Source: a virus. From it: a DNA stretch of 46,871 nt. The stretch is taken from the IMG/VR virus record IMGVR_UViG_3300043104_000084; one strand, 5' to 3'. The translations under genes were made by a program, and so were the position numbers. Under the pieces are notes generated by a model. That model did not search any database. It was given only the letters and a program-made list of their open reading frames with translations, and was not told the DNA's origin. Each line of letters opens with the position of its first letter. Position 1 is the first letter of the stretch. This document shows positions 7,172-22,380 of the stretch, in pieces.

Positions 7172-7172
7172 T

Positions 7173-8811: not shown

Positions 8812-9064
8812 AACAACCTTTTGACCGGGTGGACTTCTCGGCATGGAATCCACCGCCTTTCTCGGCATTTGTGATAGGCGTTGCAATTTTTCACATTAAA
8901 AAATTACGAAAAACCTGTTGACCGTCCGCACGCTCTCTAGTTGGCGTACCCACTGCTATTTTTTCACTCTATCCCTGCTACGGCTGTTGGCTTGCCCTCG
9001 TCAGAAAACAGGTTGCCGACCTGTCTTGACGGTTCGGGGCGTTTGCCCCTACCGTTTCGGCTAT

Positions 9065-9325: not shown

Positions 9326-9363
9326 ATCTCATTACCTCCGTGTTGTTTTCTTTTGATGATTCT

Positions 9364-9392
9364 ATTATATACTTATATAAGTATAATTGCAA
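9364..9392 (-). promoter_or_regulatory. Sigma-70-type promoter TTGCAA-17 nt-TATAAT with palindromic operator O1 filling the spacer
   Basis: Minus strand reads TTGCAAttatacttatataagtaTATAAT. Confidence 0.65.
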
Positions 9393-9466
9393 CCCGGTAT
9401 AATTCACAAATATACTTGTATAAGTATATTCATAATTTGTGCAACTTGTATACTTATATAAGTATT
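9368..9466. promoter_or_regulatory. Operators O1-O3 of the 18-bp palindrome TATACTTATATAAGTATA
   Basis: O1 9368..9385 (perfect), O2 9411..9428 (TATACTTGTATAAGTATA), O3 9449..9466 (17/18). Confidence 0.75.
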
Positions 9467-9761
9467 ATTGAGTATTTCCCATTTTTTCTTTCAACTGCTG
9501 CCGTTTTTCTTTCAGATACTTCATGTAATCGCCGTATGTCATTCCTTTAGGCGTGATTTTCTTTTGTATTTCCTGTGCCTGCTGCACTTTTTCCGTTAAT
9601 ACTGCTGCCTTTGTTACCTTTCTCGGCTCTTGCTCCGGCTGTTCTATCGGCTTTATTCCTAACCGCCTTGCCTGTCTGTTTGGCTTTGCCGTGTTGTATG
9701 TAAGTATGTTGTTACCGCCCTTGTGGTACACCTTTCTTTTCCGCTTCTTAGATTTTGCCAT
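9465..9761 (-). CDS. Hypothetical basic protein
   Basis: 98-aa Lys/Arg-rich ORF. Confidence 0.5.
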   Translation of the reverse strand: MAKSKKRKRKVYHKGGNNILTYNTAKPNRQARRLGIKPIEQPEQEPRKVTKAAVLTEKVQQAQEIQKKITPKGMTYGDYMKYLKEKRQQLKEKMGNTQ

Positions 9762-9963
9762 TTTCCAAATCCTCCGCTATTTCCATGATACCTTGCACAC
9801 AATCCTTTATATTTCCGTCTGTATCCGCCGTTATGCTCAAAATATCGCTTATCTGTCTTAACCTTTGTATCTGCTCTTTTCCAACTGCTGCCCGTTGTAA
9901 GCACTCCGGGCAGACTTCCGCAACCTCCAATGCTTTTTTACCGCATACTTGGCATTTCTTCAC
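9748..9963 (-). CDS. Hypothetical zinc-ribbon-like protein
   Basis: 71 aa. GTG start. CxxC...CxxC at the N-terminus. Confidence 0.4.
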   Translation of the reverse strand: MKKCQVCGKKALEVAEVCPECLQRAAVGKEQIQRLRQISDILSITADTDGNIKDCVQGIMEIAEDLENGKI

Positions 9964-10132
9964 TTTGTACCGACCCCCATTTTCCCGCCTGCATAGTTTC
10001 TGTTTCTGTGTTATATCGTAACCTCATAAGATTTCTTCCATTCCTCGCCCTCCTAAATCTTTTTAATGTTCTTTCATTCCACCAATACTTAAATACCGTT
10101 TTATAAAACGCTTTCGTTTTCTCTTTCATCAA
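9938..10132 (-). CDS. Hypothetical basic protein (weak call)
   Basis: 64-aa ORF bridging dcm and the next gene. Overlaps both neighbours, no clear RBS. Confidence 0.25.
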   Translation of the reverse strand: MMKEKTKAFYKTVFKYWWNERTLKRFRRARNGRNLMRLRYNTETETMQAGKWGSVQSEEMPSMR

Positions 10133-10445
10133 TTACCGCCTCTCCCAATGCGTCTAATATCCCCAAATAGACCCTTTCCGCACAATACACGCATATACTG
10201 TTACCTATTGCCCTGTACCGTGCTGTGTCCGCTATTTCCGTGCCGTCTGCTCCGTATCTGGTCCAATCGTCCGGGTATCCCTGCAAGCGTTCGCACTCAA
10301 TCGGAATCAATCGGCGGATAACATAAACAACCGTCTGTACTTTTTTCTTTAATATGTCTTTAATGCTTCTCTTAGGCTTGCTAGGGATATTCTCCCTTGT
10401 CTTGGTACTCTCTGTTATCAGAGTTTCCGACCCTCCGCCGTATGA

Positions 10446-10453
10446 CCCCCCCC
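10446..10453. repeat. Homopolymer C8 (G8 on coding strand) at the dcm frameshift point
   Basis: Counted directly: gaCCCCCCCCgc. Confidence 0.9.
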
Positions 10454-10995
10454 GCTGCTCTTAAAGTGCCGTTAATCTCTGTTTCCCTGTATCCTCCGTG
10501 TTGGTTTTCCTCAAATGCTTTCTTGTCGGTTTTTACTACCAACGGCGTATCTCCCCTTATGGTGTTATTCTGTCCGGCTGTTAATGTTCCGCTTGTACCG
10601 CTTTCCCTGTATCCGTGGTGCTGATACGCTTCGTAGAAAACGCTATGCACATCCTGTACCGTCAATGTAGGACACGGACCCCCGACCTCTCCAACGCCTA
10701 ATCCGTTGCTATTCTTCATCCGTGTAACCTCGTTTCGGAGTGGAGTTACATTCTTTTTCTCAATGAATACCGTTGTTGTTCCGCCCGTCATTATCGTAGG
10801 TGCTTTTTCCTCTTCGTATCCTAACCCTTTTCCGTTACCGCCTTGATTGTATATAAAGCCTGCTGCCTTTTCTTCTTTCAAAATGCACGGTACTTGACCT
10901 CCTGCACTTCCCATGTTCTGCAAGAGAGTAGGCGTTTTATCCTCAAATGTCCTTACCACGCTGTCAGCGTGTGCAAAGTCAAGACCTAAAACCTC

Positions 10996-11002
10996 CCCCC
11001 CT
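10996..11002. repeat. Homopolymer C7 (G7 on coding strand) inside dcm, at the end of the +1 overlapping ORF
   Basis: Counted directly: cctCCCCCCCtcgg. Confidence 0.9.
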
Positions 11003-11723
11003 CGGCTACTTTCTGTTCTAATGCTATCCGTAGGTTGTCCGGCAGTTTCCGCCCTTTCGCCTTTGCTCTTCGGAGTATACCCAAGCAGGCTTTCGGACTT
11101 AAAAAGTATTTCTCCTGCACGTTGTCCTCCAAAATCTCCGACAAGGTAGATTCTCTTTCTACGTTGGGGTACTCCCCAATATTGAGCGTCAAGGATTCTC
11201 CAAGCGGTGTCAACTGCTGCCCCTCTAACCATTCCTGCGTTTCCCCATTTTCCACTTGCAGGCATTGGAATATCGGTTTTTGTGATTGCTTCAAGCACGG
11301 CTCTAAAATCCGCTCCGTCCCGACTTGAAAAAGCACCGGGTACGTTTTCCCAAATAATGAAAGTTGGATATTTTCCATTTGTTGCTAACCTCATTTCGTC
11401 TATAATTCGTATTGCTTCCATGAACAACCCCGAACGGTTGCCTTTTAACCCTTTTCTCTGCCCTGCTATGCTTAAATCTTGGCAAGGACTACCAAAAGTG
11501 ATTATATCCACAGGTTGTATTTCATCCCCTTTTAATTCCGTCACGCTCCCAACGTGCATTACTTCCGGGAAACGGAATCTTGTAATGTCAATACAACTCT
11601 GCTCTATCTCTGCTGCCCATATCGGCTTTATCCTGCCTGTAAGCGTTGCTGCATAGCAGAAACCGCCGATACCGTCAAACAGGCTTCCTAGTGTTAATTC
11701 TGCTGCCATATTCCGACCTCCCG

Positions 11724-12023
11724 CTACACATCAAAGGAATAATCCCATACATTCTCATTCCCTGTCAGTTCAATATCTCCGCTGTGTATATAAGCCTTGC
11801 ATTTAAAAAACGCTTCTGAATGGTCGTTTGATTCCTCTACTTCGCTTTCGTCCAATTCAACCTCAATAACGCTCATATTTTTCATTCCTCGCATTACAAG
11901 AAATTTGCACGAATCAACCGCTTCCTTGCAGAGGTATACAACTCCGTCCCACGATTTCTTGATTCTTCCCTCTCCTACAATCTTTATCATTGTTTCCTTT
12001 GGTGCTGCATGATAATATTTCAT
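11724..12023 (-). CDS. Hypothetical protein
   Basis: 99-aa ORF. Confidence 0.5.
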   Translation of the reverse strand: MKYYHAAPKETMIKIVGEGRIKKSWDGVVYLCKEAVDSCKFLVMRGMKNMSVIEVELDESEVEESNDHSEAFFKCKAYIHSGDIELTGNENVWDYSFDV

Positions 12024-12025
12024 CC

Positions 12026-12313
12026 TTACCAGTCCTCCAATTTCTTAACTCTCGCCTGTAGATTGGCTATTGTCGTTTTCATATCCTCTATCTGATACGG
12101 CAACACGTCCGTGTTTTCAAACATATACAGGACTTCTACCGCCCTGTCTGTACTGATACCCTGTTTTAATCGTGGCTTCTTGCTCTTTGGGTCAATCTCT
12201 GTTAATCTGCCATTCTTAAACTTTTTCTTGGTATCCTTTGCCGGCCCCGGCATTGCCTTTTTTATCATGTTGTAATATGGGATTCCCGCCCCGGCTAATC
12301 CGTCAAGTCGCAC
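12026..12313 (-). CDS. Hypothetical protein
   Basis: Start chosen at GTG 12313, 7 nt after AGGGAGGG. The track ORF begins at TTG 12346. Confidence 0.45.
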   Translation of the reverse strand: MRLDGLAGAGIPYYNMIKKAMPGPAKDTKKKFKNGRLTEIDPKSKKPRLKQGISTDRAVEVLYMFENTDVLPYQIEDMKTTIANLQARVKKLEDW

Positions 12314-12956
12314 TCTGCAACCCTCCCTCTTCCGTGTCGGTGTCAATATCCTGTATTGCTCCCTTTTGTCTTAAATACCTGTCAAGAAAATGTACTGCAC
12401 CGTCAAATTTTACTCTGTATTTGTCTACATCTGCTACCGTTATGTATTGCCTGCCGTATATTTCTTTCATATCTCGCCATACATTCCAAGGAATAAAGAA
12501 AAAATCGTCCTGTATATTCACGCATACGCCACATAACGCTCCTAACCTGTTGTGTTTCTCCAATGCTTCCATTTGCGTATCTGTAAGCACATTCCGGGTT
12601 ATTCTGTCTTTGCTTGTCCGCTTCGCTTCAAACATGATAGAGCGTCCCCCGTATAAGGTCCCTTGAAAGTCCGGTTGTGCCGGAGTGCTGAAACGACCTG
12701 TAAATATTCCGTCACGGCTTTTCTTTTGTACTCTGAACGGTTCGGGCGTTTTGTCTATCACGGCTATATTGTGCTGTGCGTAATATCTGCACCCGGCTAA
12801 AATCTCTCTTTCAAAGTGCTGCCCCTGTGCGTTGTTCCTCCTGTTTTGGTACTGCTGCCGTAATTTGCTTTCGTCTATCGGATTCTCTCTAGCCTGCTGC
12901 CATTTCTGCAACTCTTTCTCCGTGTCCGAATCGGTCACAATTCCTTGTCCTATCAC
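12303..12956 (-). CDS. recU: RecU-like Holliday-junction resolvase
   Basis: Pattern GQHFEREI...AVIDKTPEP...PDFQGTLYGGRSIMFEAKRT resembles the RecU catalytic core. Confidence 0.55.
   Translation of the reverse strand: MIGQGIVTDSDTEKELQKWQQARENPIDESKLRQQYQNRRNNAQGQHFEREILAGCRYYAQHNIAVIDKTPEPFRVQKKSRDGIFTGRFSTPAQPDFQGTLYGGRSIMFEAKRTSKDRITRNVLTDTQMEALEKHNRLGALCGVCVNIQDDFFFIPWNVWRDMKEIYGRQYITVADVDKYRVKFDGAVHFLDRYLRQKGAIQDIDTDTEEGGLQSAT
12922..12938. repeat. 17-nt palindrome copy 2: GTGTCCGAATCGGTCAC
   Basis: Read directly. Encodes VTDSDT at residues 7-12 of the RecU-like protein. Confidence 0.9.
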
Positions 12957-12969
12957 AATTCCCTACCTC

Positions 12970-13263
12970 CTAAACAAAATACTTATCCGTTGCAAGTGCG
13001 TATCCGTATTCTTGATTCGCTCCCCTGCTGTTTTCCCAACCCGGCATCTGATGAAAGTAATTACACATATCAAGCAATACAAAACACAATTTCATATACT
13101 CCCCATGCTCTAACTCCGGCAATGTCGCACACATCTTTTGCGGATTGAGTACCTTGTACCCTGCCTTTGTAAATTCTTCCTCTGTCTTTCTAAACCTTTC
13201 CTCTGCGTCCTGCGTTCCTGTTACCGCCCCGCTTATGTATAATACCTTTTCCTGTTCTACCAT
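12970..13263 (-). CDS. DUF4406-like (nucleoside deoxyribosyltransferase-like fold) protein
   Basis: 97 aa. LYISGAVTG...F...A..L...GY.VLNP pattern. Confidence 0.5.
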   Translation of the reverse strand: MVEQEKVLYISGAVTGTQDAEERFRKTEEEFTKAGYKVLNPQKMCATLPELEHGEYMKLCFVLLDMCNYFHQMPGWENSRGANQEYGYALATDKYFV

Positions 13264-13278
13264 TCGCTCATTTCTCCT

Positions 13279-13530
13279 TTACTTATTTTTCTGATTCCCT
13301 ACCAACTCCTGCCACGGTATCAACTGCATTTTCTTCTTTCCGTCCAGTTCGTAGATAAAAGATACTGTGCCTTTCTTTAGGCTATGCTCTGCTATAATGT
13401 CCGTAATTGTCATTAGTGCCGTTCCCGCTTTTCTTGGGTATCCAGTAACGCCCATTCCCTCAATTATGGATACTTCCACGGTATCCCCCAACTCATAAGG
13501 GCAATATGCTATAAACCCTGCTTTTTGCAT
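13279..13530 (-). CDS. Hypothetical protein
   Basis: Start at ATG 13530 overlapping the upstream stop (TAATG), with AGGAGAGG RBS. Confidence 0.5.
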   Translation of the reverse strand: MQKAGFIAYCPYELGDTVEVSIIEGMGVTGYPRKAGTALMTITDIIAEHSLKKGTVSFIYELDGKKKMQLIPWQELVGNQKNK

Positions 13531-13853
13531 TAGCAACCTCTCCTTTCCTTGATTTCGTGTATTTTGAGTGTGTAATACTCTTTTCCGTGTTCTGCTCCCC
13601 ATTCTTCCTTTCCTGTCTTTATGTCAAGCGTACATACCGCTATAAACTCCGGTCTACTGCTGCCGTACCCATTTCTGAAACATATTTCTCTTTTGTCGGT
13701 CCCTTTTGGTATGTTTGAGTACGGGAACATTTCAAAGATTTTCTTAAATCTGCTTATGTAATATGGCTTTATCTCTCTGTACTCTTCCTGTTTTTCTCCG
13801 GACAGAATCATATAAAACCATTTACCCTTTATTGGTAGTGTCAGCATTTGCAC
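13530..13853 (-). CDS. ASCH-domain protein
   Basis: N-terminus LTLPIKGKWFYMILSGEKQEEYREIKPYY is typical of ASCH. Confidence 0.6.
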   Translation of the reverse strand: MQMLTLPIKGKWFYMILSGEKQEEYREIKPYYISRFKKIFEMFPYSNIPKGTDKREICFRNGYGSSRPEFIAVCTLDIKTGKEEWGAEHGKEYYTLKIHEIKERRGC

Positions 13854-14242
13854 CGCTCCCCCTCTTTTCCGCTTGTCATTCTTTTATAGCAATACAATGT
13901 TGCTTTTACATCCTCCAAGGAATCGTGAGCCTTAAACTCATATCCGTAATATCTTGCACATTTAATAAGGCTCTGCCATTTGTAACCGCCGTGCTTTTCG
14001 CTTCTCTCTCCGTAGATTTTTGCAAATACAGGCATAGGGTCAAACCACTTTTTGTTATCTACCTCTATCCCATATTCCCTTAAAAATCCGTCCTCAAATG
14101 CAGAATTGTAGGCTATCACGGTATCCGCCTTATTCAGAATGTCTTGTACTGCTGCCGTGTATCCATCAATTATTGAAACCTGTAACACTTCATCCGTTCC
14201 CGGCTTCAATCCTGTTGTTTCAAAGTCAATTACTGCTATCAT
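13841..14242 (-). CDS. DEDD-family 3'-5' exonuclease (short)
   Basis: ExoI VIDFETTG, ExoII AYNSAFED, ExoIII HDSLEDV. Confidence 0.65.
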   Translation of the reverse strand: MIAVIDFETTGLKPGTDEVLQVSIIDGYTAAVQDILNKADTVIAYNSAFEDGFLREYGIEVDNKKWFDPMPVFAKIYGERSEKHGGYKWQSLIKCARYYGYEFKAHDSLEDVKATLYCYKRMTSGKEGERCKC

Positions 14243-15170
14243 TCGATACCTCCAATCTCTGTTTTACCCAAGGTCTTTTATCTAAATACTCTTTCCAAGT
14301 TTCTTTCCTGTAGAGATTTCCGTATATGTAACGGTTGGTAAACTCCAACTGTGCTTTGTCCGGTCTTATCCCTAATCCCTCGTTTCTCTCTGCCTGTGCG
14401 TAAAGGTGTATGCCTTTATGCTTTTTCAACTGCTGCACTCTGTAATCCGCTTCGTCAAGGTCTTTCCTCACAAGCACATATATAAATAGCCTGTAAGGTT
14501 TTATCCCTCTCCTGCCTAACATATCCGCCACTTTGTCAATGTGTTTTATCTGTCCTATTGTGTCGCACGAAAAGCGTATGTATTTTATCCAATCAAGCCT
14601 TGCCAATATGTCCGCTATTTCCTCTGTTACTAATCTTGCGTCCATTCCTTGATTTAGGTCTATTTTCCAACCTTTGCCTATCATATCCCGCAACTGCCCT
14701 ATTCCGTACTCGCTCGCCAAAATGTTATTATCCATGAGTATAAGTTTCGGCGTGTCATATCTTACTAACTGCGTCCATGACCTGTACGGCTTTATGTTTC
14801 CCTCTTTTCTCGGCACATAGCACCAAGGGCATTTGTTGGGGCAACCCCTTGTAATGTATCCTATTGCATAATCACATTCCGGGTATATGGTGTAATCCGG
14901 GTACATATCCTCAATTTCTTGTGGCAATTTCTTCTCTATGTCGTATCCTGTACCGCCTTTTATCGTGTCCGGCGGTAGGTTTTTGTTTTCCTCTGTAAAA
15001 TCAAATATCTTAGACGAATATACAAGGTCGTATGTTTTCCCCTGCTCCCACCATTCCACGGTATCTCCTTTTTCCTTGTGGTATGCTGATATTTTCATAA
15101 GTGCATAGTTCGGAAATGTTTTAGCCTTTTTGAAATGTTCCTTTTCGCTATCGTGCAATCCTATCAGCAA
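14226..15170 (-). CDS. Radical SAM protein, function unknown
   Basis: CxxxCxxC cluster motif GCPNKCPWCYVP. 314 aa. Confidence 0.75.
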   Translation of the reverse strand: MLIGLHDSEKEHFKKAKTFPNYALMKISAYHKEKGDTVEWWEQGKTYDLVYSSKIFDFTEENKNLPPDTIKGGTGYDIEKKLPQEIEDMYPDYTIYPECDYAIGYITRGCPNKCPWCYVPRKEGNIKPYRSWTQLVRYDTPKLILMDNNILASEYGIGQLRDMIGKGWKIDLNQGMDARLVTEEIADILARLDWIKYIRFSCDTIGQIKHIDKVADMLGRRGIKPYRLFIYVLVRKDLDEADYRVQQLKKHKGIHLYAQAERNEGLGIRPDKAQLEFTNRYIYGNLYRKETWKEYLDKRPWVKQRLEVSNDSSN

Positions 15171-15171
15171 C

Positions 15172-16026
15172 CTAATCCCTCACTTTCCGCAACCGTAGGT
15201 AGACGCTCCACCCGGTATAATCGTTATACTGAAAATCTATCTTTGTCGGCTCATACCCCATGTACTGCTTACGCCATACCTCTTTATCTTCCGGGGTCTG
15301 TGCTAATTCCCTTAATTTTCTGAAACTATATTTATGGTCGTTTTTCTTTTCCTTTGGTTTCTCTAAATTCTGTGATGTACTCCATTTCTTGCACCCTTTT
15401 TTACGCTTATTGATATAGTTTACCAATCCCTCTATACCGTTTTCGTTTGGCTGCAATCTGTCACAATTTACGAATCCTAAATAGTCAACATTGTTTCTGT
15501 ACTCTGTATCCTCTGCCTTTTTCCAATTTATCCTTGTACTGCTCCACATCAACTCTAAATCCTCCCTCGGAAGTCCTGCGTTGATGATAATATGGTGGTG
15601 GATTCTTACCGCCTTGGTCTGCTTGTCCTCCGTTCCCTCTAAGGTCAACTGCTGCCCCTCTTCATCCTCCGGCGTGTATTCCGTCACAAGCATATATTTA
15701 AGGTCTTTCCCTGTTATCTTTTTCATTCTCCTTTTGACCCTATTTAGATAGTTATGTACGTTCTTTTCCGCTTCCTCCAAGGTCATAGGCAGGTGCTTAT
15801 CATTGTATGTTGCCGATATGTGTAAATCTCCTGCCCCAAAATTGGTATTGGCTATCTGAACGAACCGCCTTTTGCTCCTTTTTTCGTTCAAATTCTTTTG
15901 AGCCTGTGAGGATTTCCCTTTTTTCTCTTTCCCTGCTTCCGGCATATTCGTAACCGGGATTATATCTACCTCTAGCCACTCTTGACCGCAATATACCCTC
16001 TTCTCTCTAATGAAACTCTTACGCAT
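15172..16026 (-). CDS. Putative HUH-type rolling-circle replication initiator
   Basis: Three ordered motifs resemble RCR Rep motifs I-III: DLHISATY, RIHHHIIIN, GLVNYINKRKK. Confidence 0.5.
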   Translation of the reverse strand: MRKSFIREKRVYCGQEWLEVDIIPVTNMPEAGKEKKGKSSQAQKNLNEKRSKRRFVQIANTNFGAGDLHISATYNDKHLPMTLEEAEKNVHNYLNRVKRRMKKITGKDLKYMLVTEYTPEDEEGQQLTLEGTEDKQTKAVRIHHHIIINAGLPREDLELMWSSTRINWKKAEDTEYRNNVDYLGFVNCDRLQPNENGIEGLVNYINKRKKGCKKWSTSQNLEKPKEKKNDHKYSFRKLRELAQTPEDKEVWRKQYMGYEPTKIDFQYNDYTGWSVYLRLRKVRD

Positions 16027-16083
16027 TTATCCAATTCTCCTTATACTATCTTTCCACCTCTTCCCCTATATGCCCTCATAACA

Positions 16084-16119
16084 TATACTTATATAACTAT
16101 ACATACTTATACAAGTATA
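16084..16119. promoter_or_regulatory. Operators O4-O5 (tandem, abutting) upstream of rep-like gene
   Basis: O4 16084..16101 TATACTTATATAACTATA; O5 16102..16119 CATACTTATACAAGTATA. Confidence 0.7.
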
Positions 16120-16162
16120 TTTCTGTGTTATGATTGAGATGTTAATACCCCATACAAGGTCC

Positions 16163-16188
16163 GAAACGTGCCTTTTCGTACACGTTTC
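16163..16188. other. 8-bp stem / 10-nt loop hairpin, candidate origin (nick-site) structure
   Basis: GAAACGTG-ccttttcgta-CACGTTTC in the rep-proximal intergenic region. Confidence 0.25.
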
Positions 16189-16202
16189 TGTAGGCTTTTC
16201 GG

Positions 16203-16231
16203 TTGACATTGAGCAAGCCTTATAGTATAAT
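16203..16231 (+). promoter_or_regulatory. Perfect consensus sigma-70 promoter on the plus strand (TTGACA-17 nt-TATAAT)
   Basis: TTGACA 16203..16208, TATAAT 16226..16231. No plus-strand gene follows. Confidence 0.65.
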
Positions 16232-16237
16232 TTGAAT

Positions 16238-16310
16238 AGATGTATATATGTCTATAAGGCATAGCGATAAGCATTTGTGTAAGCCACTACGCAAGTGCTT
16301 TTTGTTTTTC
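16238..16310 (+). ncRNA. Predicted ~70-nt plus-strand small RNA, antisense to the 3' end of 16287..16889 and to any read-through rep leader
   Basis: Bounded by the consensus promoter and by a 13-bp hairpin plus TTTTTGTTTTT. Confidence 0.45.
16269..16310 (+). terminator. Intrinsic terminator of the plus-strand RNA
   Basis: AAGCATTTGTGTA-agccac-TACGCAAGTGCTT then a T-run. Its two G-U wobbles on the plus strand would be C-A mismatches on the minus strand. Confidence 0.55.
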
Positions 16311-16889
16311 CCTGTAAATCTTCGTTGCAAAATCTGTTTTCAAGTATCCGCCACAATCTTTGTGTTTCGCCATCCACGAACAACTAAGCAATGTTTTACC
16401 GCATTTCTCGCAAGTCATTTTCAAATACGGATATGCCGTTGTCTGTGCGTCCAAACATGGGATATATGGTATTTCCCCGCTTTCTGCGTAATGGCTGATT
16501 CCCTCTGCAAAATCCGGATAGTCTATCAGATTTCCGATTACTTTTATATCCTCCGTCTGCAATCCTCCAAGTTCCAATATTTCTCCGTATGCTATATCTA
16601 TTGCCTGTCCGTCCTGTAACAGGTAATAAGCGAATGTGTCCGCCGTTTCGTAAAGCAGTATATCCTTGTCGAATATCTCCTTTTTAAGCCTGTCCTGCTT
16701 TCCTGTACTGCTGCATAGTGTTTCTTTGCTCACTTCATACACATTTGCACCCGGATAACCGCCCTTGTCTATGTAATCCCCTACAGGTCTTTTTGCTCCG
16801 TCAAGCGGTCTTATTGGTGGGTCTGTGATATATTCGCCCTCTACCCATATCGGGTACGGTGTACTGCTGCTCTTCGCCTTTGCCCTCAT
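16287..16889 (-). CDS. YopX-like protein with C-terminal zinc ribbon
   Basis: Start at ATG 16889 (ATGA overlap with the upstream stop). VIGNLIDYPDF is a YopX-like signature. CEKCGK...CGG. Confidence 0.5.
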   Translation of the reverse strand: MRAKAKSSSTPYPIWVEGEYITDPPIRPLDGAKRPVGDYIDKGGYPGANVYEVSKETLCSSTGKQDRLKKEIFDKDILLYETADTFAYYLLQDGQAIDIAYGEILELGGLQTEDIKVIGNLIDYPDFAEGISHYAESGEIPYIPCLDAQTTAYPYLKMTCEKCGKTLLSCSWMAKHKDCGGYLKTDFATKIYREKQKALA

Positions 16890-17353
16890 GCCCTGCTGCC
16901 CCTTTCTGCTGATGTATGAATATCTCCTACAATCTTCATTTTCTCGGTATCGCAAACGCCCTTATTATCCACGCAAGGCAGTAAATAGTATTCCTGTCCG
17001 TCCGGCGATACCCACCGAAAGGCTATCACTCCATGCAACCGCACCTTTACCGTCTTTTCCCTAAATCCTGCCAATGTGTTATATTCACGGTTTAGATTCG
17101 TTTCCACGACCTCAAACCGCTTTATCTCTCCGTCCACCTTTAACTCTGTAATATCGCCTGTGTAAATCTCTTTTCCTGTCTTATCGCTATATCCTGTTTC
17201 TCTGCCAAGAGTAGCCGGGTTAATGTCAATAAAATCTCCGTCCGGCGTTCCTATCTCGGCAATCTCGTCTGTATTGAATCCATAGGACGGTAAACCGTAT
17301 ACATAATAAAACCGTTCCTCCGCCCTGTTGTATGCCAACGCTCTATACTTCAC
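16886..17353 (-). CDS. YopX-family protein
   Basis: KEIYTGDI... and ...KIVGDIH signatures. 155 aa. Confidence 0.6.
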   Translation of the reverse strand: MKYRALAYNRAEERFYYVYGLPSYGFNTDEIAEIGTPDGDFIDINPATLGRETGYSDKTGKEIYTGDITELKVDGEIKRFEVVETNLNREYNTLAGFREKTVKVRLHGVIAFRWVSPDGQEYYLLPCVDNKGVCDTEKMKIVGDIHTSAERGSRA

Positions 17354-17576
17354 GGCAATACCTCCTTAACTGCTCTCTGTATTTTTTCTCTGCTTCTAAG
17401 GTTATGTTTTCTGTCCTCAAAGGGCATGGTAATTTTGTTTCCTCTTTCGGATTCCCTAAAATCATGCTTGCAAATCCTCCGCCGTATATCGTCAATCCGC
17501 AATACGGAAACCGTGTATCCCTTTCCCCGCAAAATTCACATTCATAACAATTTTTAGGCTTTTCCATAACCGCCAC
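17343..17576 (-). CDS. Hypothetical Cys-rich protein
   Basis: 77-aa ORF, CxxCxxC near the N-terminus. Confidence 0.5.
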   Translation of the reverse strand: MAVMEKPKNCYECEFCGERDTRFPYCGLTIYGGGFASMILGNPKEETKLPCPLRTENITLEAEKKYREQLRRYCREV

Positions 17577-17579
17577 CGC

Positions 17580-17912
17580 CTATATGTCAATATCAAGGAA
17601 AATAGCCTTTTGCCATTGGATTTTACTAATCCTGTCCTCTATTTCCTCTTCGCTCATTTCGCAACAATCCTCTAAATAGCAACGGAAATTTTCTGTATCG
17701 TCCTTGAAAACATACTGCTCTCCGTCTGCGTACATCTGTTCAAAGGTGTACTCTCTTACCCTTGCCTTTCCTATAACTCCGCTCCACCGCTCGCAATCGT
17801 CCCCGGCTACTACCTCACTTTCCACCATTGGAATAGTTGGTAATTCCGGGTTAAGGCTTGCAAGAATCAGATAATCCCTTACATTCCTTTCCTGTATATT
17901 GTGCAATTCCAT
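17580..17912 (-). CDS. Hypothetical acidic protein
   Basis: 110-aa ORF. Confidence 0.5.
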   Translation of the reverse strand: MELHNIQERNVRDYLILASLNPELPTIPMVESEVVAGDDCERWSGVIGKARVREYTFEQMYADGEQYVFKDDTENFRCYLEDCCEMSEEEIEDRISKIQWQKAIFLDIDI

Positions 17913-17915
17913 GTA

Positions 17916-18245
17916 TTACCGCCTTTCCCACGCCTTTAATTCAAGCGGATATTGTTCTTTCAGTTCCCTTGACCTTGCTACATTGGCTTGCAGTAATAGC
18001 CTTGCTTCCTGCGACTTTTCGGCTGTGAATACCTTGCCGTCCGTCATTTTCTCAAACCGTGCCACATTCCGCCTTAATGCTTCATCCGTTACCGATATGA
18101 CATATACGGCCCCGCAACGCCTACAGACAAAATATTTATGTTCAATATCTCCTGTCCGCTTCGTCCTCGGCTTTATCTTGTTGATTATCCTGCCACATTT
18201 ATTACAGGTTATTATTGCCGGTCCCTTTTTCCTGTTTAACTGCAT
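17916..18245 (-). CDS. Hypothetical zinc-ribbon protein
   Basis: CNKCGR...CRRCG. 109 aa. Confidence 0.5.
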   Translation of the reverse strand: MQLNRKKGPAIITCNKCGRIINKIKPRTKRTGDIEHKYFVCRRCGAVYVISVTDEALRRNVARFEKMTDGKVFTAEKSQEARLLLQANVARSRELKEQYPLELKAWERR

Positions 18246-18484
18246 TATTTTCCCTCCTGTTTCTTCTTAGGACACCATGCCGGAGAGGTTTTAATACTCG
18301 GTGTATTCTCAAAAGGCTTTCCGAACCCTATAAAACCCTCCATTTTATGTATTTTGTAGTCTTTGAAATACTCTAAAATATATTTTTTGTCCGGGTGTTC
18401 GCAATGAAAACTCCCCCGTGTATTTCCGTAGCGTCTGCTGTCTTTGCAGTATTTGCACTCCGCACATTTAATTTTTCCTGCCAT
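18245..18484 (-). CDS. Hypothetical Cys-rich protein
   Basis: 79 aa. CAECKYC...C motifs. Confidence 0.5.
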   Translation of the reverse strand: MAGKIKCAECKYCKDSRRYGNTRGSFHCEHPDKKYILEYFKDYKIHKMEGFIGFGKPFENTPSIKTSPAWCPKKKQEGK

Positions 18485-18504
18485 TGTTCCGCTCCTTTCT
18501 TTCC

Positions 18505-18528
18505 GCTAGGGGCGGAATTGCCCCTAGC
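18505..18528. other. GC-rich 9-bp hairpin (GCTAGGGGC-6 nt-GCCCCTAGC) 14 nt downstream of the VR2 gene stop, no U-run
   Basis: Read directly. Confidence 0.6.
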
Positions 18529-18541
18529 CGTTATCTCCTGT

Positions 18542-19219
18542 CTATTCCTCTTCCGTGAGGATAGAAGATTTAAACACACAAGCCGGGCGAACGCCAATGT
18601 AACCATAGTACGCATTGTAGTCGTCGAGCGAACCGTCCGTGTACACAATCCGGGCATAATGGTTAATTGTGCTGTCAGCCGTGATTAACCACCACCAATC
18701 CTCTATCCGGTGGATAAACTGGCGGTACTTCCTGTACTGTTCACAAGTAAGCAGAAAAACCTTGTCCGTACTGCTGCCGTAATCCTTTAATCCGTCATCC
18801 GTTGTCAAATCCTGCTCCTGCTCCAAAATCGCCCCCGTATCCTGTCCTTTTGCTTTCATTTCCTCGCATAATGCGTTAAGGAATTTTCCGTTAAGGCGTT
18901 CTCTAAGGCTCGATTTCTTCCAATCGTTGCTGTTTTCCTCGTCAAATGCCTTGTACTCTACGATTTCGTCCGTAATGCAAAGTACCCTGTCCTCGTCCTT
19001 TGCCAATACATCCCAAACCAAACCGCCGATTTTTACCCTGCTGCCCTCTGCGTAATCTGCTAACTGCTTCATTTCCTTTTCCTCCTTGTTAATTTTGCTA
19101 ACCGTCCTGCACCACGATATAGCATTGTTTTTAGTTGCCTTTATAGTTCCCGTGATACTCATGTTTTGCCCGAAAATTTCACATTGTTTCGGCATATAAA
19201 GCACATCATCATGTTTCAT
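18542..19219 (-). CDS. DGR target protein 2: stand-alone variable C-type-lectin-like domain protein (VR2 at C-terminus)
   Basis: C-terminus WWWLITADSTINHYARIVYTDGSLDDYNAYYGYIGVRPACVF is paralogous to the VR1 region. Alternative start ATG 19072 has a strong GGAGGA RBS. Confidence 0.8.
   Translation of the reverse strand: MKHDDVLYMPKQCEIFGQNMSITGTIKATKNNAISWCRTVSKINKEEKEMKQLADYAEGSRVKIGGLVWDVLAKDEDRVLCITDEIVEYKAFDEENSNDWKKSSLRERLNGKFLNALCEEMKAKGQDTGAILEQEQDLTTDDGLKDYGSSTDKVFLLTCEQYRKYRQFIHRIEDWWWLITADSTINHYARIVYTDGSLDDYNAYYGYIGVRPACVFKSSILTEEE
18575..18658 (-). repeat. DGR variable repeat VR2
   Basis: 84 nt aligned to TR 28941..29024. 11 mismatches, all at TR adenines (coding strand). Confidence 0.85.
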
Positions 19220-19230
19220 TCTTTTTTCTC

Positions 19231-19440
19231 CTATTTCTTTGAGTAAATCGAATGTAACTTAATGCTTCCTCTCCGCTTTATGCTCTCTTCGGTGTGCAAT
19301 CCCGAATCAAAGAACGCACAAAACGTAGTTCCTCCGATTTCCGTAGTTGCTACAATGTGTGAGCCTATATCGTGAAACTCACAATTTTTCGTGTTACGGA
19401 AAATCATAATGTGCTTTTCCGTCCTGCTGCCTTTCCCCAC
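19231..19440 (-). CDS. Hypothetical protein
   Basis: GTG start 8 nt after AGGAGGG. 69 aa. Confidence 0.4.
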   Translation of the reverse strand: MGKGSRTEKHIMIFRNTKNCEFHDIGSHIVATTEIGGTTFCAFFDSGLHTEESIKRRGSIKLHSIYSKK

Positions 19441-19624
19441 TGGTCCGACCCTCCTTTATTGCTTTTTGTTCTTTTGATATATCTGCTATTGCCTGTGTTA
19501 TCTGCTCATAATCCCCTTGCAGATAATCAGCAACTAAGCCTATGACCTGTAACGGCAAACCGTCCTCTACAACCTCATTTCCTACCCTGTCTGCTATCTC
19601 TCTTGCTATTTCCTTTACATCCAT
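19394..19624 (-). CDS. Hypothetical acidic protein
   Basis: 76-aa ORF. Confidence 0.45.
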   Translation of the reverse strand: MDVKEIAREIADRVGNEVVEDGLPLQVIGLVADYLQGDYEQITQAIADISKEQKAIKEGRTSGERQQDGKAHYDFP

Positions 19625-19626
19625 GT

Positions 19627-19809
19627 CTATACTGTCCTCTGTGCCGTATCAGCCTTGTATGGAGTTCCCCCACGCTTTAACTCGTTGTAGATTGTTGCAC
19701 GGTGTACTCCTATACTTTCTGCAATCACTACTACACGCTCGCCGGACTTGCACATTTTTTCTATTTTCTGCCTGTCCTCGTAGTTCAATCGCCTATTTCC
19801 TTTTCTCAT
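19627..19809 (-). CDS. Stand-alone HTH protein resembling the N-terminal HTH of IS30 transposases
   Basis: LNYEDRQKIEKMCKSG...IAESIGVHRATIYNELKRG parallels MSRSDRIKMEALLNAG...HRSTIYREYEKG of the adjacent transposase. Confidence 0.55.
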   Translation of the reverse strand: MRKGNRRLNYEDRQKIEKMCKSGERVVVIAESIGVHRATIYNELKRGGTPYKADTAQRTV

Positions 19810-19825
19810 GCTCTTTTACCTCCTT

Positions 19826-19874
19826 AACAAAAAAAGAAAAATGCGTCTAAAGGTCACAAACCCTTGACGCATTT
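19826..19874 (-). terminator. Hairpin plus U-run directly upstream of the RBS of 19627..19809
   Basis: Minus strand AAATGCGTC-18 nt-GACGCATTT then TTTTCTTTTTTTG. Confidence 0.45.
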
Positions 19875-19885
19875 CGTATTTTTAG

Positions 19886-19932
19886 GTATAAAAAAGAAAT
19901 GCGAAAGAGTTTAATAACTCTTGTCGCATTTC
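19886..19932 (-). terminator. Strong intrinsic terminator downstream of the IS30 transposase gene
   Basis: 16-bp stem with a 1-nt bulge (GAAATGCGACAAGAGTT/AACTCTTTCGCATTTC) followed by TTTTTT. Confidence 0.7.
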
Positions 19933-19994
19933 ATTTTACAATGTAGCATTATATTTTGTCAATAGTTTTGCGACAAGTTTTTCAAAAAATTTTT

Positions 19995-21032
19995 CTATGC
20001 CAATTTCTGCAATTCTTCCTCGAATAACTCCGCTGATGTTCTATAATCAAAAATTCCCCTTGGATAGTGGTTTATCCAGTTCTCTATATATTCTATCTCT
20101 TCATCCGTTGTATCCTCAAAGTCTACTCCCTTTGGTATGTGCCTGCGTATGAGCCTGTTATTGTTCTCGTTCGTTCCCCTTTCCCAACTACTGTAAGGGT
20201 GGCAGTAAAAAACATAAGTCCTCTTTTCCTCTCTTAGTGCTGATTTCTCCATGCCCTCATAATCTGCAAACTCTACGCCATTATCTACCGTTATGCTTCT
20301 GAATATCTTATAGAACATATCGCCCCATTTTCTCTCTAACCGGTCCAATGCTTTCACTACAGACGCTGCCCCTTGGTCTTTCAGTTTGATAACTATTTCA
20401 TCCCTCGTCTTTCTCTCTGTCAGTACAAGCATACAGGACTTTGTAACGCCACGCTGCCCCTTTACCGTATCCATTTCCCAATGTCCGAATATCTCTCGGC
20501 TCTCTATCTCTTCCGGGCGATTTTCTATACTTTCTCCTGCACTTGCCCTCTTCTGTACCTTTACCTTTTTATTGTGTTTCTTCCTTTTCCCCTTTATCGG
20601 TAATTCCTTATTTGTCAGTTTAAGGAAGATTCCATTATCAATATATCTGTATAGCGTCCTCACGCTAATTGTTGTCTTAAATTCAATTCCCGACCTTGTG
20701 ACCTCTGCTAGTGCTGCTTCCGGGCTAAACCTGTCATTTACTATTTTGTCCTCTATGTACTCTGCCAACTCCCTATCGTTCCCGATTTTTAACGCCCTGC
20801 CTTTCCCCTCTTGGGCGTAATCGTGTGCTTTCTGTCCTAAATCGCTGCTATATCTTTCTTCCTCTGTGTAATCTGAATTTCTGTGTATATACTTTCCCTT
20901 TTCGTATTCCCTGTATATCGTACTCCTGTGAAAATGTAATTGTTCTGCTACCTCCGCCTTTGTATGTCCGGCGTTTAGCAATGCTTCCATTTTTATACGG
21001 TCACTCCTGCTCATTTGCTTAAATTTTCTCAT
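19995..21032 (-). CDS. IS30-family DDE transposase
   Basis: N-terminal HTH. HWEMDTV, ITVDNGVEF and SWERGTNENNNRLIRR (DDE triad context). Start at ATG 21032 after GGAGGTG. Confidence 0.85.
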   Translation of the reverse strand: MRKFKQMSRSDRIKMEALLNAGHTKAEVAEQLHFHRSTIYREYEKGKYIHRNSDYTEEERYSSDLGQKAHDYAQEGKGRALKIGNDRELAEYIEDKIVNDRFSPEAALAEVTRSGIEFKTTISVRTLYRYIDNGIFLKLTNKELPIKGKRKKHNKKVKVQKRASAGESIENRPEEIESREIFGHWEMDTVKGQRGVTKSCMLVLTERKTRDEIVIKLKDQGAASVVKALDRLERKWGDMFYKIFRSITVDNGVEFADYEGMEKSALREEKRTYVFYCHPYSSWERGTNENNNRLIRRHIPKGVDFEDTTDEEIEYIENWINHYPRGIFDYRTSAELFEEELQKLA

Positions 21033-21060
21033 TGTATACACCTCCAAACGCCAAAAGGCA

Positions 21061-21094
21061 GCAAGGCTATATACGCCCGCTGCCTAATGATTCT
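21061..21094 (-). terminator. Terminator-like hairpin after 21098..21706
   Basis: Minus strand GGCAGC-16 nt-GCTGCC then TTTTGG. Confidence 0.4.
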
Positions 21095-21097
21095 TTA

Positions 21098-21706
21098 CTA
21101 ATTTTCTTCGTTTACCTTTTCAATATCTCCGTTATCCGTATATACAAAGTATTCTCCTAAAGGCGTACCGCTAAACATTGCCTTTGCGTCCTGCTCTTCT
21201 CCGTCCGTATACTCATATAAGGATACATCCAAAAATCCGGCTGGCTTACTGATACTTGCCGTTGTCTTGGTAGTCAGATTTACCACCGCTAAAATGGTTT
21301 CGTCAGAATCAAAGTAATTTTCATAGCATGATAGGGCATACTCTGTAATGTCTATATTGTTTTCCGCAATAACCAAGCATTTCCATTTTCCTGTAACATC
21401 ATTCCTTACGGTGTTGTATACTACAGGCTTCAAATCGTCAATGCTCTTTTCACTTATCCCTACTATGCTATCCCCTGTCCTGTGTTCTACCTCTTCTTTT
21501 GCCTGTTCTGTGGTTTCCGGCTCTGCCGTTTCGTCCTGCTGCTCTGTTTCTGCTTCGGTTAAATCAGCAGTACCCCCCCCCCGAACATTCGTTTGTGCTT
21601 CTGTGTTCGCCGTTTCCTGCGTGTTGTCCTTGCTATTATTTGCCAATAATCCATAGCATAAAAGCACCGCCACAACCGCAATGATGATAATGTGTTTTTT
21701 CTTCAT
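21098..21706 (-). CDS. Membrane-anchored/exported acidic protein (contains G10 tract)
   Basis: N-terminal hydrophobic segment KKHIIIIAVVAVLLCYGLLA, then a low-complexity acidic linker and a globular C-terminus. Confidence 0.6.
   Translation of the reverse strand: MKKKHIIIIAVVAVLLCYGLLANNSKDNTQETANTEAQTNVRGGGTADLTEAETEQQDETAEPETTEQAKEEVEHRTGDSIVGISEKSIDDLKPVVYNTVRNDVTGKWKCLVIAENNIDITEYALSCYENYFDSDETILAVVNLTTKTTASISKPAGFLDVSLYEYTDGEEQDAKAMFSGTPLGEYFVYTDNGDIEKVNEEN
21573..21582. repeat. Homopolymer C10 (G10 on coding strand), currently in frame (R-G-G-G)
   Basis: Counted directly: taCCCCCCCCCCga. Confidence 0.9.
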
Positions 21707-21729
21707 TGTTACCCTCCTTGTTTTTTGCC

Positions 21730-21746
21730 GTGTCCTAATCGGTCAC
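21730..21746. repeat. 17-nt palindrome copy 3: GTGTCCTAATCGGTCAC (intergenic)
   Basis: Flanked by CC/GG. Ends about 15 nt upstream of the RBS of 21098..21706. Confidence 0.85.
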
Positions 21747-21846
21747 GGAGATATTGATTTTTTCTTTTTTTCCTGCTATATTATTAGAAACACTTGGGGC
21801 GGTTAGCAGGAATGTTAAGAAGTCCGCCCCTTGTGTGAATCCCTAT

Positions 21847-22005
21847 TTAATCTTCAATATCCTTTTGGGTATCCTCGATTAAATCATCAATCAGCCTTTC
21901 GGCTTCCTCTAGGTTCTTTTCTTTGATAGCCTTTTTCAAGTCTTTCAAATCTCTCATTAACCGTCTTAAATAACTTTTGAATACTGCCATTGTTTCATCC
22001 TCCAT
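21847..22005 (-). CDS. Small helical hypothetical protein (52 aa; below ORF-track cutoff)
   Basis: ATG 22005 or 21990, both with GGAG-type RBS. Located downstream of consensus promoter 22046..22074. Confidence 0.3.
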   Translation of the reverse strand: MEDETMAVFKSYLRRLMRDLKDLKKAIKEKNLEEAERLIDDLIEDTQKDIED

Positions 22006-22045
22006 TGTTTCAACTCCTTTCCTGCTATCTCCTTGCTACAATTAT

Positions 22046-22074
22046 ATTATATACTTATATAAGTATAATGTCAA
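22046..22074 (-). promoter_or_regulatory. Perfect consensus promoter TTGACA-17 nt-TATAAT with operator O6 filling the spacer
   Basis: Minus strand reads TTGACAttatacttatataagtaTATAAT. Confidence 0.7.
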
Positions 22075-22099
22075 GCGTTTTTATACTTATATAAGTATT
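22050..22099. promoter_or_regulatory. Operators O6-O7
   Basis: O6 22050..22067 (perfect); O7 22082..22099 (17/18), abutting the RHH gene stop. Confidence 0.75.
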
Positions 22100-22100
22100 T

Positions 22101-22298
22101 TTAACTCCGGCTTTTCTTCTCGTTTATTGCAGCAACCACAAACTCATTACGGCTACTATATCCCTGTTCCTTTGCTGCTCTGTCAATCTCTGCTTTTTCT
22201 CCTGTCGGAACGGTAACTAAAAACTGGTCGTATGCTTTTGCATTGTATTTGTTCTTTGCTCTTGTGGCAGGCGTTCCGCCTGTTCTTTCCTCTGCCAT
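22101..22298 (-). CDS. Arc/MetJ-type ribbon-helix-helix DNA-binding protein
   Basis: 65 aa. NAKAYDQFLVTVPTGEKAEIDRAAKEQGYSSRNEFVVAAINE fits a beta-strand/helix/helix layout. Operators flank the gene on both sides. Confidence 0.7.
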   Translation of the reverse strand: MAEERTGGTPATRAKNKYNAKAYDQFLVTVPTGEKAEIDRAAKEQGYSSRNEFVVAAINEKKSRS

Positions 22299-22346
22299 AT
22301 TCTACCTCCTGTTTATTCTAAATTGCTTCCTAAGTGTCTTGTTGAG

Positions 22347-22380
22347 ATTGTATCATACTTTTTATACTTATACAAGTATA
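22347..22380 (-). promoter_or_regulatory. RHH gene promoter (TTGTAT-17 nt-TACAAT, TG-extended) overlapping operator O8 (22363..22380)
   Basis: The -35 (22370..22375) lies inside TATACTTATACAAGTATA. Confidence 0.55.

Follow-up and report, generated by a model that had tools for sequence, protein, structure and literature searches.

Which protein reads the 18-bp palindrome TATACTTATATAAGTATA, repeated in the 46,871-nucleotide viral sequence IMGVR_UViG_3300043104_000084 from IMG/VR (the whole stretch analyzed, hereafter the window), and what would such a protein do for the phage that encodes it? An earlier note, made from the letters of the sequence and its open reading frames (ORFs), had named as the obvious candidate repressor for the palindromes the product of a minus-strand gene at 22101..22298, a 65-amino-acid (aa) ribbon-helix-helix (RHH) protein of the Arc type. 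The comparative analysis described here, most importantly the linkage of this gene to the sites and the co-variation of the sites with the beta-strand of the protein, argues for the same assignment. We put at roughly 80% the probability that the 65-aa protein is an Arc/AmrZ-like RHH repressor and that the 18-bp palindromes are its operators; the comparisons of protein and site sequences across relatives lend strong support to an RHH repressor that regulates its own gene along with a dispersed regulon.

The repetition of the palindrome is far beyond chance. A search allowing up to three mismatches returned nine sites in the window (vs. 0.05 expected), a number reached by none of 100 shuffled sequences. 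Two copies are perfect (starting at 9368 and 22050), five carry one mismatch (9411, 9449, 16084, 22082 and 22363) and two carry two mismatches (16102 and 21208). The eight copies listed in the earlier note were all recovered at the same coordinates and with the same mismatch counts, including the two perfect ones and the others with one or two changes; its total was one short, the copy at 21208 having been missed. Eight of the nine palindromes are intergenic (binomial P ~8e-10) in a window of which, by a hand-curated gene map, 5.6% is intergenic, and these sites occupy four of the 15 gaps of at least 60 bp, with a spacing of 18-43 bp between discrete 18-bp sites. A relaxed scan of the window for TATAC-N8-GTATA (at most one arm mismatch) gave 11 sites vs. 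~2.3 expected, and the only palindromic centers among them were those of the nine known copies. The ninth copy (21208-21225) lies within the gene of a 202-aa exported protein, where it codes for SLYEYT. It was rejected as a functional operator for want of conservation in the homologous gene of the one relative retrieved (best match, six mismatches), and it is probably fortuitous or particular to this phage.

Promoter calls, obtained by reading the minus strand and by a consensus scan, place a number of these sites directly on promoter elements. The minus-strand promoter TTGACA-17-TATAAT at 22046..22074 matches the consensus at 12 of 12 positions and holds the perfect operator O6 (22050-22067) in its spacer; the minus-strand promoter TTGCAA-17-TATAAT at 9364..9392 (10 of 12 positions) likewise holds the perfect operator O1 (9368-9385). 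Both operators begin 1 nt past the -35 hexamer, fill the 17-bp spacer and cover the first 2 nt of the -10, so that the hexamers and coordinates given originally for these operator-in-spacer promoters hold but the placement of the palindromes strictly between the hexamers does not. The promoter of the RHH gene itself (22375..22347, minus strand) consists of a -35 TTGTAT (22375..22370), a 17-nt spacer and an extended -10, TGaTACAAT, ending at 22347. Its -35 lies inside operator O8 (22363..22380, one mismatch), an arrangement proposed before and seen again in the minus-strand reading. The lone mismatch of O8 is the G that makes TTG, and it is kept in the RHH-proximal operator of all close relatives, which argues that it is functional rather than a product of drift.

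The remaining operators are positioned with comparable precision. Operator O7 (22082..22099, one mismatch) begins 1 nt past the stop codon of the RHH gene; its start and that of O6 are 32 bp apart, and the corresponding pair in relatives has a 33-bp spacing. Together with O1, operators O2 and O3 form a three-operator cassette upstream of the par genes: O2 (9411..9428, one mismatch) is the middle site, 38 and 43 bp from its neighbors, and O3 (9449..9466, one mismatch), the distal one, overlaps the stop codon of a 98-aa gene by 2 nt. Upstream of rep, O4 (16084-16101, one mismatch) and O5 (16102-16119, two mismatches) abut exactly over 16084..16119, as the description of two adjoining copies at the Rep gene implied, with the rep start codon on one side and a conserved origin-like element on the other; a relative, L072, has an equivalent pair. 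The operator-in-spacer geometry is also kept in L072 with the same operator, and in a second relative, L241, a perfect TTGACA-17-TATAAT promoter with a variant TTCCGTAA operator in its spacer stands ahead of a homologous small acidic ORF. The genes that these regions precede are those named at the outset, namely the RHH gene, the small ORF with the exported-protein gene, the HUH Rep gene, and the predicted operon running through parA and parB to the putative late regulator.

The protein displays the layout of an RHH regulator with an additional N-terminal element: a helix with the sequence TRAKNKYN, a beta-strand DQFLVTVP, helix A, a G-x-S-x-N turn and helix B. In alignments of homologs, the N-terminal T-R-A-K-N-K-Y-N...Y motif is invariant and the strand is variable; residues G46, S49 and N51 of the turn are invariant or nearly so, and the strand (D-Q-F-L-V-T-V-P) alternates polar and hydrophobic residues, in agreement with the turn and strand of the superfamily. 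An AlphaFold2 monomer model (pLDDT 80) comprises helices at 10-22, 34-44 and 50-64 and an extended segment at 23-33, a predicted RHH fold with an extra N-terminal helix, in which the ribbon of the dimer is beyond what a monomer model can display. The closest solved relative in a profile search of the Protein Data Bank (PDB) is AmrZ (3qoq, E=0.008), followed by NikR (E=0.27), and no sequence match was found in that search for omega, ParG, Arc, Mnt or CopG (omega and ParG being absent at E<=10, with omega structures in the set). By alignment to AmrZ and Arc, Q25, L27 and T29 would face DNA on the ribbon. Among family models, the protein matches phrog_13890 (E=1.8e-22), to which no function is assigned; it passes no curated Pfam or NCBIfam model, with matches below cutoff to Pfam TacA1 (E=0.0047) and NCBIfam YlcI_YnfO (E=8e-4). 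Its homologs bear the NCBI label 'ribbon-helix-helix domain-containing protein'.

The assignment of the palindromes to this protein is carried mainly by a comparison of its homologs, which are found in at least 101 IMG/VR loci (the family as a whole forms 3,297 clusters at 50% identity, E<=1e-3, across Bacillota). Homologs at 77% identity or above are accompanied by the same palindrome, usually with three copies in the 150 bp ahead of the gene, two more right behind it and a pair before rep, and homologs at 41-66% identity have palindromes at the same upstream position in which the TATAC/GTATA arms are kept and the centers differ. Across ~60 viral loci with 10-kb flanks, TATAC-N8-GTATA sites fall almost only within ~150 bp upstream of the RHH homolog, to which close relatives add copies 400-500 bp from the RHH start, just downstream of the gene, and at rep. 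The earlier note had suggested looking for the same palindrome beside RHH genes of related elements, and sites are indeed found within 260 bp upstream for 52 of 65 distinct viral RHH proteins and upstream in 39 of 72 loci from GTDB reference genomes (~15 times the background density, Paenibacillus included), the whole comparison spanning more than 130 related phage and genome loci. For scans of viral contigs, ACTTACGGAAGTAT was a productive pattern; those with TATACTTNNNNAAGTATA and TACTTACACAAGTAT gave mostly chance matches among those listed and were of little use.

Within this family, the operator center (the central 8 bp) goes with the identity of strand residues 25, 27 and 29. Proteins with Q-L-T, including one 61% identical to that of the window, go with TTATATAA, and those with R-E-A go with TTACGGAA. 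The class R-Y-Y, represented by gut Clostridia phages and a dozen Paenibacillus species, goes with TCACGTGA (T(C/A)(A/G)CGTGA in the viral set). The other pairings are Q-K-W with TGGTACCA, R-F-A with GTGCGCAA, R-N-V with TTACACAA and, in reference genomes, S/N-R-V with TTGACYAA. The TTACGGAA center is non-palindromic and is used in both orientations (lineages of L159 and L241). From these pairings we infer that the central 8 bp and three strand residues (Q25, L27 and T29 here) set the specificity class, which varies from one related phage to another. As a speculation, DNA may be read in two parts, an invariant N-terminal helix going with the invariant arms and the strand with the center, as the use of TTACGGAA in both orientations would suggest.

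The co-variation extends to sites far from the RHH gene. The three-operator par cassette is kept in 20 ParA-bearing relatives and in four more with variant centers, and its scaffold (flanks, -35, -10 and ribosome-binding site) is constant; the three centers change jointly, to TTGYRCAA in L136, TTGCATAA/TTATGCAA in L148 and L163, TTACACAA in L157 and TTACGGAA, three times, in L159. The last of these relatives shares 81% ParA, 70% ParB and 80% methyltransferase identity with the window, yet it belongs to another operator class. On contigs ..._022175, ..._036789 and ..._041949, TTACGGAA is found around the RHH gene as well as ~450-830 bp upstream of parA, in a lineage whose RHH protein and ParA are each ~53% identical to those of the window, and the RHH and par sites are also concordant on four TTATATAA contigs. 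Sites upstream of rep co-vary in L334, L340 and L326, and variant half-sites occupy the same place in these three and in L347. The proposal that the sites link the RHH gene, rep and par in one regulon is borne out to the extent that the same variant occurs at RHH and parA on single contigs and, in some lineages, at rep. Such a joint pattern of protein and sites is what would be expected from a cognate repressor with dispersed operators, and it makes binding by ParB, the transposase or a host factor hard to reconcile with the data.

A number of observations weigh against this reading, or at least against its simplest form. The top Foldseek matches of the RHH model against the PDB are RHH proteins, at values that are not significant (E ~5, for a 65-aa monomer). 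A canonical site within ~300 bp is missing for about one in five viral homologs and for nearly half of those from genomes (the arms may differ in such cases, e.g., in L022), and co-variation among related sequences is not independent of phylogeny. A comparison of upstream regions reveals no rep sites in L238, L209 and L204, and L347 is a mosaic with TTACGGAA at par and TTGCGCAA-type half-sites at rep. The rep operators of the window have, by eye and by scan, no credible sigma-70 promoter and none that is conserved between the window and L072. A strong promoter (19962..19933) heads the early region without any palindrome; the RHH protein therefore does not govern every early transcript, and at least one further layer of control exists. 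Finally, if the prophage persists as a plasmid, repression of par is an awkward property for a regulator of lysogeny alone.

In the mechanism that we propose, RHH dimers, probably as a dimer of dimers, would bind each palindrome. On the operators that fill the spacer and enter the -10 at 22074..22046 and 9392..9364, the bound protein would sterically exclude RNA polymerase, and the auxiliary operators 32-43 bp upstream would probably provide cooperativity. The operator over the -35 of its own promoter would impose negative autoregulation on the RHH gene, and the tandem operators at rep might repress or roadblock rep expression or, alternatively, occupy the origin. Four targets would be held down jointly: the RHH gene itself; the operon of the small ORF, the exported protein and maybe the transposase; replication; and the par operon leading to the late regulator. 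The sites and their enrichment, the promoter geometry, the RHH fold signature, and the linkage and co-variation of protein with sites are computational findings; binding, repression, cooperativity and the physiological role are inferred.

The rival explanation that survives best, and that we nevertheless consider unlikely, is that the RHH protein is chiefly a centromere-binding partner of the short ParA, with the par cassette serving as the centromere, TRAKNKYN stimulating the ParA ATPase instead of reading DNA, and transcription control being secondary. The ParA of the window (251 aa; 7173..7928, minus strand; Pfam AAA_31, E=3e-47; phrog_164) is a short Walker-type ATPase without an N-terminal extension and with its Walker A at the N-terminus, like the type Ib ParAs. 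The partners of type Ib ParAs are small RHH proteins, and their centromeres are repeats upstream of the operon, a description that the three-site cassette, conserved as widely as described above, would suit. It is also in favor of this explanation that no other parS-like repeat family was found in 2600-9400 and that the N-terminal motif stays invariant while the DNA specificity shifts. Nonetheless, the RHH gene is 14 kb from parA (22.1-22.3 vs. 7.2-7.9 kb) and outside the par operon, where ParA has alternative candidate partners in the ParB_N-domain protein and in a 70-aa ORF, unrelated to RHH, whose start overlaps the ParA stop. For many RHH homologs, the only sites are one or two ahead of the homolog's own gene, and the surrounding 10-20 kb contain no other; in integrated prophages, the RHH gene lies at the prophage end. 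Precise placement of sites on promoter elements would, moreover, be needless for a centromere.

It is far less probable that the palindromes are bound by another protein (the ParB_N protein, in the manner of KorB of RK2, a 60-aa IS30-type helix-turn-helix (HTH) protein, the transposase or a host factor) and that the RHH gene is a mere neighbor. The window does encode a ParB_N protein and an IS30-like transposase; KorB-type ParB homologs use dispersed palindromic operators, and IS30 transposases favor palindromic hot-spot targets. However, the palindrome tracks the RHH gene in viral as well as genomic loci, including Paenibacillus and integrated relatives without a nearby IS30 transposase, and the operator center co-varies with RHH strand residues. 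The case of L159 bears on the same point, since its ParA (~80% identical) and ParB are close to those of the window and its operator class is different.

We hold as very improbable an explanation by which the RHH protein is the antitoxin of a DUF1778/TacA-like module, the copies at rep and par being incidental. The weak, below-cutoff TacA1 match points in this direction, as do the names that two sources give to homologs (DUF1778 in one, 'antitoxin' in another), but no toxin gene is adjacent, a separate strong promoter intervenes between the RHH gene and the 52-aa ORF that follows, and no GNAT domain was found in the neighboring proteins scanned. Furthermore, the protein ends at helix B (65 aa), without a C-terminal toxin-binding extension, and the distal sites show both conservation and same-contig co-variation. 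Least credible of all is a function of the palindromes as RNA or DNA structure (hairpins, terminators or recombination sites): some copies are perfect, and those at 22082 and 9449 start right after and overlap a stop codon, respectively, but these AT-rich 18-mers are followed by no T-run, none was called as a terminator, they are positioned on -35, spacer and -10 elements, and the non-palindromic TTACGGAA center used in both orientations weakens a hairpin model while being compatible with a protein of two-fold symmetry. On the grounds given for each, we rejected the toxin-antitoxin, KorB/ParB-operator, IS30-target and RNA-hairpin readings.

The preferred reading, an RHH repressor acting on palindromic operators, has several known counterparts. 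Omega of the Inc18 plasmid pSM19035 is a small RHH protein with a flexible or extended N-terminus that represses its own promoter as well as copy-number and partition promoters via repeated sites that precede or overlap these promoters. The logic of a self, replication and partition regulon, deduced here from operators, would be similar, whereas the sites are not: omega uses arrays of 7-bp heptads, and the window has 18-bp palindromes. The omega gene resides in a par/toxin-antitoxin operon and the RHH gene of the window 14 kb from parA, after lysis genes, in an element that is a tailed phage with an additional ParB_N-domain protein. Of the resemblance to omega put forward in the earlier note, only a functional one would remain (operators lie at self, rep and par); no sequence similarity was detected, and the sites are of another type, without heptads.

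Arc and Mnt of P22 (immI) as well as AmrZ of Pseudomonas are closer in form, being autoregulated RHH repressors that act on ~17-21-bp palindromic operators overlapping promoters. The strand QFLVTVP resembles QFNLRWP of Arc and DKFVVRLP of AmrZ, AmrZ likewise has an N-terminal extension, and the divergent promoters over a three-operator cassette in close relatives of the window phage recall immI. Unlike the genome-wide regulon proposed here, Arc and Mnt control one locus (the antirepressor), and the window family differs from them in its invariant TRAKNKYN helix and in an operator with conserved arms and a variable center. For a regulon of such breadth, C1 of the phage-plasmid P1 offers a precedent, as one repressor with many operators scattered over the (pro)phage genome and several operons, and so does F55 of SSV1, an RHH protein whose binding to repeated sites, both in its own promoter and in early ones, maintains lysogeny. 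Neither is known to be homologous to the RHH protein of the window; C1 does not belong to the RHH proteins and acts on asymmetric operators, and SSV1 is an archaeal fusellovirus with tandem-repeat sites. The RHH protein would very probably be a genuine regulator, ordinary in its mechanism (RHH repressor, palindromic operators on promoters, omega-like logic), from an unstudied family.

The window is a complete-looking tailed-phage genome of ~47 kb in which every convincing gene is on the minus strand. In minus-strand order, genes for portal, head, tail, tape measure, baseplate and lysis are followed by a terminator, the RHH gene, a 52-aa ORF, the exported-protein gene and an IS30-like transposase gene. 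Next come a 60-aa ORF with an IS30-type HTH, small early genes, the HUH Rep gene, and genes for a radical-SAM protein, an exonuclease, a resolvase and a C5 methyltransferase. The last group consists of the three-operator cassette, ParA, the ParB_N-domain protein, a phrog_36 regulator, and the small and large terminase. The first gene past the operator-in-spacer promoter at 22046..22074 is the 52-aa acidic helical ORF (21847..22005), for which profile searches gave no family match; small acidic ORFs occupy the same place in L072 and L241. It is followed by the gene of a 202-aa exported or membrane-anchored protein (21098..21706), which contains a run of ten G at 21573-21582, coding GGG, a possible site of phase-variation slippage or a spot prone to sequencing error. 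The transposase, a 350-aa IS30-like DDE enzyme (19995..21047; phrog_4646, E=6e-139; Pfam HTH_38 and rve), is kept at this position in relatives (syntenic in L072) and is possibly encoded by the last gene of the RHH-controlled operon. The 60-aa IS30-type HTH ORF (19627-19809) adjoins it on the same strand as an apparent IS30 remnant and is kept in L072. At the other end of the regulon, the promoter 9392..9364 heads a predicted operon that begins with an 86-aa ORF and runs through ParA and the 490-aa protein with a ParB N-terminal domain (4606..6078; Pfam ParB_N, E=2e-8; phrog_4715, E=2e-90) to a putative late transcriptional regulator (3773..4255; phrog_36, E=1e-23; weak sigma-70/ECF match) just upstream of the small terminase.

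The transposase and the adjoining IS30 remnant make the window phage resemble a recently described class. 'IScream' phages of gut Clostridia integrate via IS30 transposases; they have no tyrosine or serine integrase and carry an IS30 transposase and an IS30 remnant at opposite prophage ends, adjacent when circular, and the preprint describing them mentions no repressor (PMC12247996). In the early region of the window, no CI/Cro-type repressor and no tyrosine or serine integrase was found, and the phage may belong to this class; unlike a purely integrative phage, it also has Rep, ParA and a ParB-like protein.

The Rep protein (15172..16026, minus strand; phrog_3584, E=8e-74; Pfam REP_ORF2-G2P, 30 bits vs. 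a cutoff of 27.8) is an HUH-type initiator with the motif IHHHIIIN. Upstream of its gene, on the minus strand, lies the conserved element ccttgtatggggtattaacat (16139..16159), found in all nine lineages compared; in the form (g/a)ccttgtatggggtattaaca it precedes rep in L072, L204, L209, L238, L326, L334, L340 and L347, even at ~45% Rep identity. By analogy with the origins of phiX174 and pC194, the HUH Rep may use this element as its nick site or double-strand origin. Close to it, a perfect plus-strand promoter, TTGACA-17-TATAAT (16203..16231), faces opposite to all genes and is followed by a 13-pair terminator hairpin (16269-16300) with a T-run. The predicted plus-strand RNA of ~70 nt (16203-16310; fold z -4.9) would be antisense to the 3' end of a 222-aa gene, immediately ahead of rep and its origin-like element. 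L072 retains the promoter (TTGACT-17-TATAAT), and the unit has no Rfam match. By analogy with CopG and RNAII of pMV158, this RNA is a candidate countertranscript controlling read-through into rep. In pMV158, an RHH protein (CopG) and a countertranscript act upstream of a rolling-circle Rep gene, and the window has operators and a conserved opposite-strand promoter/terminator unit in the corresponding place; the differences are that CopG shares a transcript with repB and recognizes a pseudo-palindrome of 13 bp, whereas the RHH gene of the window is 6 kb from rep and its small RNA is a prediction.

Other noncoding stretches of the window and its relatives also have distinctive features. The gap at 19810-19994, which separates the transposase gene from the 60-aa HTH ORF, contains, on the minus strand, the early promoter TTGACA-18-TAAAAT (19962..19933), overlapping a second one (TTGTCG-17-TATAAT), then two tandem terminator-like hairpins with U-runs before a ribosome-binding site (fold z=-6.5), and the repeats cttgtcgca, tgcgacaag and tgcgtcaag; a leader that requires antitermination, a small RNA and the junction of IS ends in the circular form are all conceivable. 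In the par-proximal operon, 322 bp (8743-9064) without a credible ORF are kept in L163 and end in a near-perfect hairpin of 51 bp (8763-8813); an exact copy of one of its arms is present in L136, L137, L162 and L250. Rfam gives no match for this stretch, and folding, which covered the 5' part (8890-9064), gave nothing significant (z=-0.8); the stretch could be a centromere or a processing site. A search of Rfam over the whole window returned nothing at gathering thresholds. A tRNA-like stretch (gcacgggtggcgcaatggatagcgc...ggttcaagtcccgtcccgtgca) is seen between the par cassette and parA of L331 (~1830-1905), a phage of the TTACGGAA lineage.

Close relatives are also informative on the arrangement of the RHH locus itself. 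In L072, the three-operator cassette upstream of the RHH gene (9320-9450) is that of par in reverse orientation. In the integrated relatives L504-L506 (~9540-10000, 4420-6311), the operator-in-spacer promoter of the cassette faces a divergent gene of 67-78 aa and the RHH gene is read from the other side, in a module situated at the prophage end in three different host contexts, an arrangement like the divergent switches of lambda or immI. The window has no divergent gene and a single operator upstream of the RHH gene. The earlier statement that neither a CI-like repressor nor a divergent switch is visible accordingly remains correct for the early region and for the window, respectively, and requires a qualification for close integrated relatives, which do have a divergent gene across a three-operator cassette. 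As a separate observation, these L504-L506 prophages carry a diversity-generating retroelement (bAvd and reverse transcriptase) near the tail genes.

What the regulon is for can be answered with less assurance than what binds the operators. A role of the RHH protein as the master (immunity) repressor of the prophage is a serious possibility, although short of even odds. The lack of a CI-like gene in the early region, the position of the RHH gene behind the lysis terminator at the prophage end with a promoter of its own, and its apparent control of the transposase, rep and the route to the late regulator are consistent with such a role, and so is a specificity that diversifies on a conserved backbone, as immunity regions do. 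A role as an omega-like homeostat of copy number and partition is also possible and is offered more tentatively; it would account for the rep and par targets, the short type Ib-like ParA and the cassette upstream of par. Because avoidance of incompatibility would diversify specificity too, the diversification does not separate these two roles, and both of them together, or some other role, make up the rest of our estimate. The original suggestion that the RHH circuit may be the maintenance/lytic switch of this phage is a hypothesis still.

A broader proposal, which we regard as doubtful, is that the RHH family supplies the master (immunity) repressor that has long been missing for those phages and phage-plasmids of Bacillota that are IS30-mobilised or related to such phages. 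The TRAKNKYN helix would read the TATAC arms and three strand residues the center, yielding a code of heteroimmunity or incompatibility, and the protein might also act, like omega, as a centromere adaptor for ParA, coupling transposition, replication, partition and late entry. There is no characterized relative. The best phage match of the window among isolate DNA is 300 bp at 79% (Clostridium phage Saumur), with no match among plasmids; tblastn with the RHH protein retrieves only metagenomic 'Dulem viruses', no isolated phage or plasmid in the collections carrying the protein; and the searchable literature holds nothing relevant on the motif, the PHROG family or RHH repressors of phage-plasmids. 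Homologs occur in culturable carriers (Paenibacillus species, Pseudoflavonifractor phocaeensis and Roseburia sp.), which makes the system testable.

Overall, the analysis proposes a function for the unannotated family phrog_13890, as the likely central regulator of abundant and barely studied human-gut Clostridia phages that are seemingly related to IScream. The at least ten RHH/operator pairs on a conserved scaffold would aid the study of DNA reading by the beta-ribbon, and they may be useful as orthogonal repressor-promoter sets for the synthetic biology of Gram-positive bacteria and gut anaerobes as well as for predicting immunity or incompatibility groups. If the master-repressor and adaptor reading were true, one 65-aa protein would couple transposition, replication, partition and the entry into late expression in these phages.

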